From a virus (taxonomy: Duplodnaviria > Heunggongvirae > Uroviricota > Caudoviricetes), in IMG/VR virus record IMGVR_UViG_2859821903_000004, positions 1 to 14,159 of that record: 14,159 nucleotides of DNA; one strand, given 5' to 3'. The notes under the pieces are model-generated. The model was not told where the DNA came from and did not search any database. It was given only the letters and a program-made list of their open reading frames with translations. Positions within the stretch are counted from its first letter, which is position 1; each line of letters begins with the position of its first letter. Of the stretch, positions 6,635 through 7,378 are shown in pieces. The translations under genes were made by a program, and so were the position numbers.

Positions 6635-7378
6635 TTGCCCGCGCCTCTTTGACAGCGACATAGCACCGTTCGGTGATCAGGTAATCCAGGTTTTTACGCT
6701 TCCAGAACCCACCGCTGCCATTGGGACGATCTTCCAGCATCCAGCGACAGTTCTCAGCAACGTATCGCAGATAGGACTCCCATCGCTGCTGGTCAAAACC
6801 GAATTTCTGCCAGAACGTCCGCAGATTTTTTTTCCTGGTATCCGTCAGAATTTTCACTGATGGCATTTCAGGCAGGATTTCGTGATAGCTGTCCAGAACC
6901 CTCTGCCAGTCGATTTTGTTTTTTGCGCGATGACTGACCTGTGGATCTGCGTCAGCAGATCCACCAACATCAGGTTCATTGACTGGTTCAAAAGAGTGAC
7001 TGGTTCTGGGTGCAACTCCTGCACTGGCAACAGGTGCAACTCCTGCGCTACCCGATGCATCTGATGCACAATGTAGCGAATTATTTGCACTATTCCCCGG
7101 TAAATTTTCTGCACCATCCAGATGAAGGAGATAGATATTACTTGTATTACCTTTTTCACCTTTCCGGGTGATTTTTTTACCAGCCCGGACTCACAAAGCG
7201 CCGCAATATGATTAATCACAGAACGCTTGCTAATCTCGCACTGGTCAGCGATATACTGGTAGCTGGGCCAGCACTCGCACTGATCGCTGGCATTATCAGC
7301 CAGCTTAATCAGAACCAGCTTACGCAATGGATTACCCACTTTAATTTCCATTGCTTTTGCCATTAGTTTCATGCTCAT
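6624..7378 (-). pseudogene. Phage replication initiator (lambda O-like position, N-terminal HTH), frameshifted in a homopolymer
   Basis: The N-terminal 80 aa (frame of ORF 6854..7378) are plausible (…LIKLADNASDQCECWPSYQYIADQCEISKRSVINHIAALCESGLVKK). The plausible continuation (RKGEKGNTSNIYLLHLDGAENLPG...FWQKFGFDQQRWESYLRYVAENCRWMLEDRPNGSGGFWKRKNLDYL...) is in the frame of ORF 6624..6866. Both frames are open across the T7 run at 7172-7178, and an 8th T joins them. Length 755 nt is one short of 252 codons. Confidence 0.7.
6942..7046. repeat. Repeat cluster inside the initiator coding region: a 22-bp perfect palindrome plus two pairs of direct repeats (iteron-like)
   Basis: TGGATCTGCGTCAGCAGATCCA (6942-6963) is a perfect palindrome with 9-bp arms. 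TGACTGGTTC occurs at 6980-6989 and 6997-7006 (17-bp period, not a multiple of 3). GGTGCAACTCCTGC occurs at 7009-7022 and 7033-7046 (24-bp period). Confidence 0.5.

Follow-up and report, generated by a model that had tools for sequence, protein, structure and literature searches.

The DNA analysed here is a 14,159-nucleotide (nt) stretch of a Caudoviricetes genome (IMG/VR record IMGVR_UViG_2859821903_000004, positions 1 to 14,159), hereafter referred to as the window. We examined a cluster of repeats inside its replication-initiator gene, which an initial annotation had proposed to be a prophage replication origin. The initiator gene is located at 6624..7378 on the minus strand and is a pseudogene, of which the open reading frames (ORFs) 6854..7378 and 6624..6866 represent two frames. 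The 174-amino-acid (aa) ORF (6854..7378) loses the frame at a run of seven A residues on the coding strand (7172..7178 on the minus strand; T7 on the plus strand), and the 80-aa ORF (6624..6866) is the true C-terminal end. The 174-aa ORF was thus ruled out as a genuine product and is a frameshift artefact of a 251-aa gene. The intact allele was found in Escherichia coli CFSAN029787 (756 bp, 251 aa, protein WP_000062044.1), where the run consists of eight A residues, and the 1-nt deletion in the window shifts the frame after residue ~68. The same frameshift is present, together with a G34C change, in an independent contig (IMG/VR UViG 2526164619, L009). At the corresponding position phage SfV has A7 followed by G and stays in frame, and the homopolymer run 7172-7178 is slippage-prone. 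A sequencing error as the source of the contraction from A8 to A7 cannot be formally excluded, though the independent contig has the same allele. The initiator stop codon overlaps the start of a gene for a DnaB-like replicative helicase (5231..6634, minus strand), which is also a pseudogene. The intact helicase, protein WP_000131761.1, has 467 aa, and the gene product is 30% identical to P22 gp12; compared with the intact allele, a C-to-T change at 5444 turns a Trp codon (5444-5446) into a stop. Both replication genes are therefore inactivated by single-nucleotide lesions. Between 5200 and 7420 the window differs from CFSAN029787 at only seven positions, including the A-run deletion, the initiator change G34C and the change at 5444, and the candidate origin DNA (6940-7120) is identical in the two.

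The intact initiator consists of an N-terminal winged helix-turn-helix (HTH) domain, a linker encoded by the repeats and a C-terminal partner-interaction domain. The HTH assignment of the N-domain (coding region 7116..7378, minus strand) is based on a Pfam match of residues 17-67. HTH_36 (PF13730) scored above its curated threshold (49.1 bits, cut-off 25, E=4.9e-13), and DnaD_N scored 22.5 bits, below its cut-off of 27. The recognition helix reads ...SKRSVINHIAAL.... The protein also matched PHROG 8540 (E=2e-67) and PHROG 345 (E=1e-51), both annotated as 'replication initiation O-like'. The initial annotation had likewise called it O-like. In Pfam no Phage_rep_O (PF04492) match was obtained for the initiator, and BLASTP gave nothing significant against lambda O and only a weak C-terminal match (E=8e-4) against P22 gp18. 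By Pfam and BLASTP, no homology of the N-domain to those of lambda O or P22 gp18 was thus found. The initiator is therefore a functional analogue of O and not a member of its family, so that the earlier designation holds for function and fails for homology. A sequence search for relatives of solved structure returned none.

All the repeat features lie on the non-coding strand of this minus-strand gene, across which the true reading frame is ...SGSAGVAPVASAGVAPRTSHSFEPVNEPDVGGSADADPQ.... Two direct repeats are present as first described: the 10-mer TGACTGGTTC at 6980 and 6997, with a period of 17 bp, and the 14-mer GGTGCAACTCCTGC at 7009 and 7033, with a period of 24 bp. The argument that the 17-bp repeat is not a duplicated peptide was also borne out, as the two 10-mers are read in different frames (RTSH and EPVN). 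The 24-bp-period repeat is in frame (8 codons). The third element, TGGATCTGCGTCAGCAGATCCA at 6942, had been taken for a 22-bp perfect palindrome. The four central nt are not matched in the reverse complement, which rules out a perfect palindrome; the element belongs to an inverted repeat at 6941-6964 with 10-bp arms (GTGGATCTGC/GCAGATCCAC) and a 4-nt loop. The cluster had been placed at 6942-7046. The repeats do lie there, and the 14-bp repeats proved to be the two best of five in-phase dyad units, so that the array continues to about 7114 and comprises five units instead of the two noticed.

In gene direction, the five units are iteron 1 (7100..7114, GTGCAgaaaaTTTAC), iteron 2 (7076..7090, GTGCAaataaTTCGC), iteron 3 (7055..7069, GTGCAtcagaTGCAT), iteron 4 (7034..7048, GCGCAggagtTGCAC, holding the second 14-mer) and iteron 5 (7010..7024, GTGCAggagtTGCAC, holding the first 14-mer). 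The starts at 7010, 7034, 7055, 7076 and 7100 are separated by 24, 21, 21 and 24 bp, and none of 300 Markov simulations of the window reached a cluster of five. Iteron 5 is an exact dyad and the sole exact unit of the consensus GTGHA-N5-TDCAC in the window. The other four are each changed at one near-invariant arm position. Two of these four changes are synonymous wobble substitutions: an A-to-G change in iteron 2 at an A that is otherwise 97% conserved, and a T-to-C change in iteron 4 at a T that is otherwise 97% conserved. Such synonymous arm changes are as expected after a constraint on the DNA has been lost in a defective prophage lineage. The same degenerate array was found in strains whose initiator and helicase ORFs remain intact.

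The first 10-mer copy (6997..7006, minus strand, GAACCAGTCA, reading R-T-S-H) begins 3 nt past iteron 5. The second copy (6980..6989, minus strand, GAACCAGTCA, reading E-P-V-N in the other frame) lies 17 bp beyond the first, and a degenerate third (6968..6977, minus strand, GAACCTGATG, 7/10 match) lies 12 bp beyond the second. An intact third 10-mer at the 12-bp spacing is found in about 40% of family members. By themselves, two 10-mers are not above chance within the window, and their significance comes from the comparison with homologues. The hairpin-type inverted repeat (6941..6964) reads GTGGATCTGC-TGAC-GCAGATCCAC on the coding strand and lies at the start of the C-terminal module, 46 nt past the last iteron. 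It is the only inverted repeat with arms of at least 9 and a loop of 2-5 in the 14-kb window (mean in shuffles, 0.14), and as single-stranded DNA it folds with -11.3/-11.5 kcal/mol (z = -5.5/-6.2). The segment 7080-7150, described earlier as AT-rich in analogy with lambda, does contain 64.8% AT compared with 49.4% overall (top 2.8% of 71-nt windows). It overlaps the two most degenerate iterons and lies on the opposite side of the repeats from the AT-rich region of lambda, so that the composition was right and the lambda-like placement was not. Rfam gave no family match over the repeat region, and a check by eye of the 10-mer block for DnaA box, IHF and Fis motifs gave no convincing match. A conserved overlapping or antisense ORF (such as the 60-aa ORF at 6882..7064 on the plus strand) was rejected because each antisense frame is interrupted in most of the 106 unique cores (open in 0, 6 and 16).

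To place these features in their family, we gathered 80 loci from IMG/VR and 80 from bacterial genomes, one genome per species, with Pseudomonas, Aeromonas, Shewanella, Marinomonas, Xenorhabdus, Haemophilus, Avibacterium and others represented in the latter set. In an alignment with SfV orf39 and gp14 of Pectobacterium phage ZF40, nearly every base of the arrangement GAACCAGTCA-N7-GAACCAGTCA is kept, even though ZF40 has an unrelated linker and an overall identity of only ~73%. SfV has three exact 10-mers, and the equivalent array of SfV or mEp460 has five exact iteron units. Every locus matching the N-domain (44-100% aa identity) contained at least two 10-mers with no more than one mismatch, on the coding strand at nt ~330-400 and at spacings of 17 and/or 12 bp. 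Among the more than 30 loci matching the C-domain only, none had the 10-mers. Nearly all family genes contained, upstream of the 10-mers, 3-6 in-register dyad units of the form GTG(C/A/T)A-N5-T(G/T/A)CAC, located at -18, -42, -63, -84 and -105 relative to the first 10-mer. The spacing is 21 bp (occasionally 22-23), and the last two iterons are 24 bp apart, i.e. with an extra codon, in essentially every family member. With extended arms the unit can be written (TG)GTGHA-N5-TDCAC(CA), with TGGTGCA and TGCACCA as arms and a length of 15-17 bp. The shared order thus begins with 3-6 dyad units, which are followed by 2-3 GAAYCAGTCA copies and, in this C-terminal module, by the hairpin-type repeat. 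The module of N-domain and repeats is present in SfV, ST64B, mEp460, several Stx2 phages and prophages across Gammaproteobacteria, and this part of the gene gave a megablast match in 1025 of 5426 complete E. coli genomes.

The alignment of relatives, which the initial annotation had put forward as a check, indicated that the repeats are kept at the DNA level beyond what the protein needs. For gene pairs 60-75% identical in the N-domain, we compared codons in a block of 15 codons spanning the 10-mers with those in the N-domain. Conserved residues used the same codon in 94% of cases in the 10-mer block versus 37% in the N-domain, and identity at wobble positions was 0.85 versus 0.39 with amino-acid identities of 0.63 and 0.68. 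Register-based matrices, made from 100 unique origins (GC 0.37-0.62) with no selection on the motif, agreed with this result. Wobble positions were conserved at 94-98% (T) and 97-99% (A) in the arms and at 91-100% in the 10-mers. The variation was instead found at non-synonymous positions: arm position 3 (C67/A30; Ala, Glu or Val), arm position 11 (G81/T15; Ala or Ser) and 10-mer position 4 (C50/T50). The last of these, GAA[C/T]CAGTCA, changes in both copies and thereby exchanges Thr and Ile in one frame and Pro and Ser in the other. The wobble position immediately outside the 10-mer is free, as is the N5 spacer between the fixed arms. Arm positions 3 and 11 were complementary in 38% of units versus 44% expected, which indicates that no hairpin is preserved in the dyads; hairpin and RNA structures were accordingly rejected for these units. 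The evidence points to a constraint that acts on the DNA of the repeats, far beyond the requirement of the protein.

Next to this constraint, the dyad units covary with the recognition helix. Among 97 unique N-domains, 84 are accompanied by 3-6 exact GTGHA-N5-TDCAC units and never have Arg before the helix His. Five (from Erwinia/Izhakiella and Aliivibrio) are accompanied by GTGAC-N5-GTCAC units, and all of these have the helix ...MRHI in one of two helix backgrounds. Four (ZF40, L054, L161 and L162) go with longer GTG-N11-CAC units and the helix ...V(R/K)(K/A)HI. The other four N-domains (the window lineage L004, L027, L029 and L127), with one exact GTGHA-N5-TDCAC unit each, were left unclassified. 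The 10-mers are unchanged across all three classes. The constancy of the 10-mers while the iterons vary indicates that the dyad units behave as specificity determinants. The dyad units are probably iterons bound by dimers of the winged-HTH domain, with the 10-mers as a constant second element. A testable recognition code is suggested by these alignments, in which Asn or Ser before His57 would go with GTGCA/TGCAC arms and Arg with GTGAC/GTCAC arms. As for the 10-mer, it is possible, and we propose it only tentatively, that GAAYCAGTCA is an unrecognised origin element independent of initiator specificity, perhaps a melting or helicase-entry site. Its constancy across the classes, its range from Pseudomonas to Haemophilus and its occurrence as a single copy at the junction of P22-type origins point toward such an initiator-independent role. 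Its reader could be a host factor or the ~47 ultra-conserved residues at the start of the initiator, which might act on single-stranded DNA.

The N-domain and its repeats are inherited as one module. Similarity of about 88% to SfV, ST64B, mEp460 and the Stx2 phages is limited to 6952/6973-7378 of the window. The homology boundary (6952-6973) thus falls just past the 10-mers, and the shared part is the N-domain with the repeats. In the family, this N-module is joined directly after the 10-mers to at least eight unrelated C-terminal domains. The C-domain is matched to the adjoining downstream helicase or loader gene in the window type, the lambda O type and the gp18 type. One natural hybrid has a lambda O-like end (70% identity across the final 30 aa), with a homologue of lambda P (61%, E=5e-81) as the next gene; another has a P22 gp18-like C-domain (41%) followed by a gp12-type helicase (44%). 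With the C-domain of the window type, a DnaB-like helicase gene came next in all three divergent examples. Three IMG/VR loci (L012, L013 and L027) combine an HTH_36 N-domain and GTGCA-type iterons with a lambda P homologue downstream, and L012 also ends like lambda O. These hybrids indicate that P-dependent helicase loading can run from an origin-recognition module other than that of lambda. A further group (L019, L020, L026 and L263-L276) has the same C-domain and the junction inverted repeat, with its likeness to the present initiator confined to the C-domain. Just before the inverted repeat, these genes contain direct repeats of their own, 12 bp long (ACAGAGAATACT-like, encoding TENT/TEIT), which probably represent a further iteron type in the same slot.

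Inverted repeats downstream of the 10-mers were not enriched across the whole N-domain family. A universal feature of the N-domain family is therefore unsupported, and the inverted repeat goes with particular C-terminal modules. The C-domain relatives have a 4-nt-loop inverted repeat at the same codons with different pairings (TCTGC/GCAGA, TCAGC/GCTGA, TCGGC/GCCGA and ACTGC/GCAGT), the last of which needs two non-synonymous changes. In a pair-count test, in which the chosen sequences already had four complementary inner pairs, 75% of cells were paired versus at most 42% in slid controls. The covariation score was 0.212 compared with 0.071 +/- 0.026 after shuffling, and none of 500 shuffles reached 0.212. 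More distant C-domain relatives have unrelated 9-11-bp inverted repeats just upstream, and P22-type origins keep a CCCCC-loop-GGGGG repeat. The 10-mer block forms no structure as single-stranded DNA. In the family mean, it is the duplex-stability minimum of the gene and comes directly after the most stable segment, the iterons.

The arrangement resembles the origin of lambda. Ori-lambda lies in gene O and contains four 18-19-bp dyad iterons, a 38-40-bp AT-rich region and a 28-bp inverted repeat; the O protein assembles into an O-some, and its C-terminus recruits P-DnaB. In both systems the origin or candidate origin is located inside the initiator gene, in the linker between a DNA-binding N-domain and a partner-binding C-domain (array at nt ~265-410 of 756 here; iterons at nt 348-432 of 900 in lambda). 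Both have tandem dyad-symmetric units spaced by about two helical turns, and in both the module or homology boundary falls directly past the origin. A 4-nt-loop inverted repeat starts 46 nt past the last iteron here and 44 nt past iteron ITN4 in lambda, with 10-bp arms here and imperfect 12-bp arms (11/12 paired) in lambda. The present initiator differs from lambda O in that its N-domain is of the HTH_36/DnaD_N type, not Phage_rep_O, and its iteron sequence is unrelated. The intervening segment has 2-3 invariant GAAYCAGTCA copies, which are absent in lambda, whose 42 bp are 79% AT, and the partner is a phage-encoded DnaB-like helicase instead of a P-type loader.

In this last respect the locus is closer to P22, in which the initiator (gene 18) is followed by the phage's own DnaB-type helicase (gene 12) with overlapping start and stop. 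The P22 record has an annotated rep_origin inside gene 18 at a similar relative position (nt 352-496 of 816), and an inverted repeat (CCCCCT-AA-AGGGGG) bounds it. Unlike the present initiator, gp18 has a lambda-O-like N-domain and GGTAAA-N3-TTTACC-type iterons, and a lambda-like AT-rich stretch is retained. P22 nevertheless has an exact GAATCAGTCA past its last iteron (L085 1435-1444), and this sequence is kept in all 34 unique gp18-relative sequences examined (L166-L245), even though the N-domain of gp18 has no relationship to the one here. P22 has this 10-mer once only, and it looks like the left half of a P22 iteron joined to the spacer (GAATCGGTAAAAC). It may thus be a degenerate half-iteron; a shared element, a recombination scar or coincidence are the alternatives. 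Gene 18 of phage L contains six imprecise 11-bp repeats (TGTCCAACGGA) that have been proposed as an origin. That case is similar in that a divergent lambdoid initiator has its own repeat set in the coding region and in that both proposals come from sequence, and it differs in its short direct repeats and its different protein.

Iteron plasmids offer another comparison. Their initiators (pPS10 RepA, F RepE, R6K pi and RK2 TrfA) are winged-helix Rep proteins with phased tandem sites and an adjoining meltable region. The plasmid iterons, located outside the rep gene, are direct asymmetric 17-22-bp repeats to which monomers bind, whereas the dimers bind a separate inverted-repeat operator. A winged-helix initiator with tandem phased sites beside a meltable region is common to both, whereas here the main units lie within the gene and have dyad symmetry. 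Among the repeats here, only the 10-mers are direct and asymmetric; at 17/12-bp spacing they are not helically phased and so do not qualify as direct iterons of the plasmid type.

The segment ~6941-7114 is very probably the origin of a defective lambdoid or Rac-like prophage, located in the linker-coding part of the initiator gene and organised like ori-lambda. To this extent, the initial proposal is supported, namely that initiator-binding repeats within the initiator gene form a prophage origin, as they do in lambda. It would be a lambda-type origin in the gene of a non-homologous HTH_36/DnaD_N initiator, and in the window it is probably a non-functional relic. The architecture, the conservation at the DNA level, the co-inheritance of repeats and N-domain, the covariation with the recognition helix and the synteny are direct observations. 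As the course of initiation, we infer that the initiator binds the units, a complex assembles, the 10-mer zone melts and the helicase is loaded. Dimers of the winged-HTH N-domain would bind the five dyad iterons, as suggested by the dyad symmetry, the DNA-level conservation and the recognition-helix covariation. The 21-bp spacing corresponds to two helical turns, which would place the dimers on one face of the DNA and may allow an O-some-like complex to form. The ~45-bp segment with GAAYCAGTCA, which takes the place of the AT-rich region of lambda, is by its position and thermodynamics the likely zone of melting and helicase entry. The hairpin repeat with 10-bp arms that follows is the counterpart, by position, of the 28-bp palindrome of lambda. 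The C-terminal domain is expected to recruit the phage's own DnaB-like helicase encoded directly downstream, a step to which the synteny and the domain-swap hybrids point.

Several observations weigh against this interpretation. In the literature searched, no experimental binding, melting or origin activity was found for any member of the family. The copy in the window may have no activity, as both replication genes are broken and the array is degenerate; with one exact unit out of five it is among the most degenerate of the family, in which 84 of 97 unique N-domains have 3-6. On the opposite flank of the array is the stretch with the highest AT content in the lineage (7115-7165). The AT content of the ~45-bp segment that separates the iterons from the inverted repeat is only 56% in the window and ~60% in the family mean, compared with 79% in lambda. 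The segment's assignment as an unwinding element is based on position and relative stability. The second and third iteron classes comprise 5 and 4 unique proteins only, and the locus counts overstate the number of independent events since the sequences are related. No recognising partner is tied to the invariant 10-mers. Finally, the initiator binding sites could also, or instead, serve autoregulation.

If the last point were the whole explanation, the dyad units would be mainly autoregulatory, acting as an operator or transcriptional roadblock inside the gene, and the origin would lie elsewhere. Dyad sites bound by dimers are typical operators, and Rep dimers of iteron plasmids are known to repress at inverted repeats; the codon, covariation and wobble data moreover show constraint and probable binding, not replication. 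However, ori-lambda and the annotated P22 origin are matched in position, copy number, 21-bp phasing and the presence of an inverted repeat ~45 bp downstream, and in natural hybrids the module takes the place of the origin-binding half of lambda O or P22 gp18. The replication region showed no further repeat cluster, and both functions could coexist. We therefore regard a mainly regulatory role as unlikely. A by-product of a slippage-expanded G/S/A/P-rich heptad linker, with no cis-acting function of the DNA, is hardly credible. It is true that the 21- and 24-bp units keep the frame and yield peptide repeats of the (G/S)-A-x-x-A-P type, that the copy number ranges from 3 to 6 and that linkers tolerate expansion. 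This explanation is already contradicted by the codon and wobble data: the arm wobbles are 94-99% conserved across genera with GC of 0.37-0.62 while the amino acids change, the N5 spacer is free next to fixed arms, and the 10-mers are identical DNA in two frames. No alternative or antisense frame is conserved.

The breakpoints raise the question of whether the conserved block, and especially the 10-mers, is a junction sequence kept for recombination between phage replication modules. The homology breakpoints fall exactly there, the N-module is joined to at least eight unrelated C-modules right past the 10-mers, and GAATCAGTCA occurs at the corresponding junction of P22-type origins. One would not expect selection for recombinational evolvability to keep wobble positions 91-100% conserved in many genera of Gammaproteobacteria, however, and such selection leaves the covariation of iterons with the helix and the phasing unexplained. 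The lambda model predicts a junction past the origin anyway, because the unit of specificity is the N-domain with its sites. Recombination as the reason for the conservation is thus very improbable. A role of the inverted repeat, and possibly of the dyads, as RNA structure in the initiator mRNA, e.g. in translational coupling or stability, would account for the paired changes, including wobble-wobble pairs, equally well as a single-stranded DNA hairpin, and transcription of the gene runs through the repeat. With the inverted repeat, the data fit an RNA role as well as a DNA role and do not separate the two. As an explanation of the locus, RNA structure has little probability: the dyad arms are complementary at positions 3 and 11 less often than expected (38% vs 44%), no Rfam match was found, and an inverted repeat occupies this position in lambda and P22 too, within origins that are genetically defined or annotated. 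An initiator-bound origin of the lambda type remains our preferred interpretation.

Directly upstream of the initiator, 7469-7891 and 7875-8102 (both minus strand) encode a YdaT-family protein and a small Cro/YdaS-like regulator, and a cI-like repressor is encoded opposite these genes at 8179-8586 (plus strand). A Rac-like immunity region is thus joined to a P22-like replication module of initiator plus helicase. Farther along, Rfam detected isrK (10191-10267, plus strand, 64.7 bits) and a C4 antisense RNA (10292-10379, plus strand, 78.6 bits) at the 5' end of the ORF 10140..10979. This region resembles the antisense immunity cassette of P1/P7-type in a prophage, and a partly similar stretch of CFSAN029787 contains a Rha-family regulator gene. 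On the other side lies an insertion sequence of the IS3 family (2354-3567), IS600-like to judge from how matching E. coli records are named, with its ALIL programmed-frameshift pseudoknot at 2635-2751 (Rfam, 116 bits). At most 44% of the window is covered by any one complete E. coli genome of the collection, which hints at a source rich in IS elements and resembling Shigella.

That the initiator genes of lambda, P22 and L each contain iterons of their own is a published principle. An origin inside the gene with type-specific iterons is textbook knowledge for lambda and P22, and the present finding is therefore expected in kind. In the literature searched, which left most subscription journals outside, no description of these units or of the 10-mer was found, and an earlier description is possible. 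The deposited records of SfV, ZF40, mEp460, ST64B and Stx2a_1447 have no origin annotated at the module. What is new is that the origin belonging to a different and very common initiator family is described at the level of sequence. The replication module of the window itself is dead and decaying. For the family, a GTGHA-N5-TDCAC array followed by GAAYCAGTCA is offered as a rule for annotation, together with a testable protein-DNA recognition code and a conserved 10-mer. The description also predicts which phages share replication specificity, and hence which origins of resident prophages could be fired by a superinfecting phage or could titrate it.

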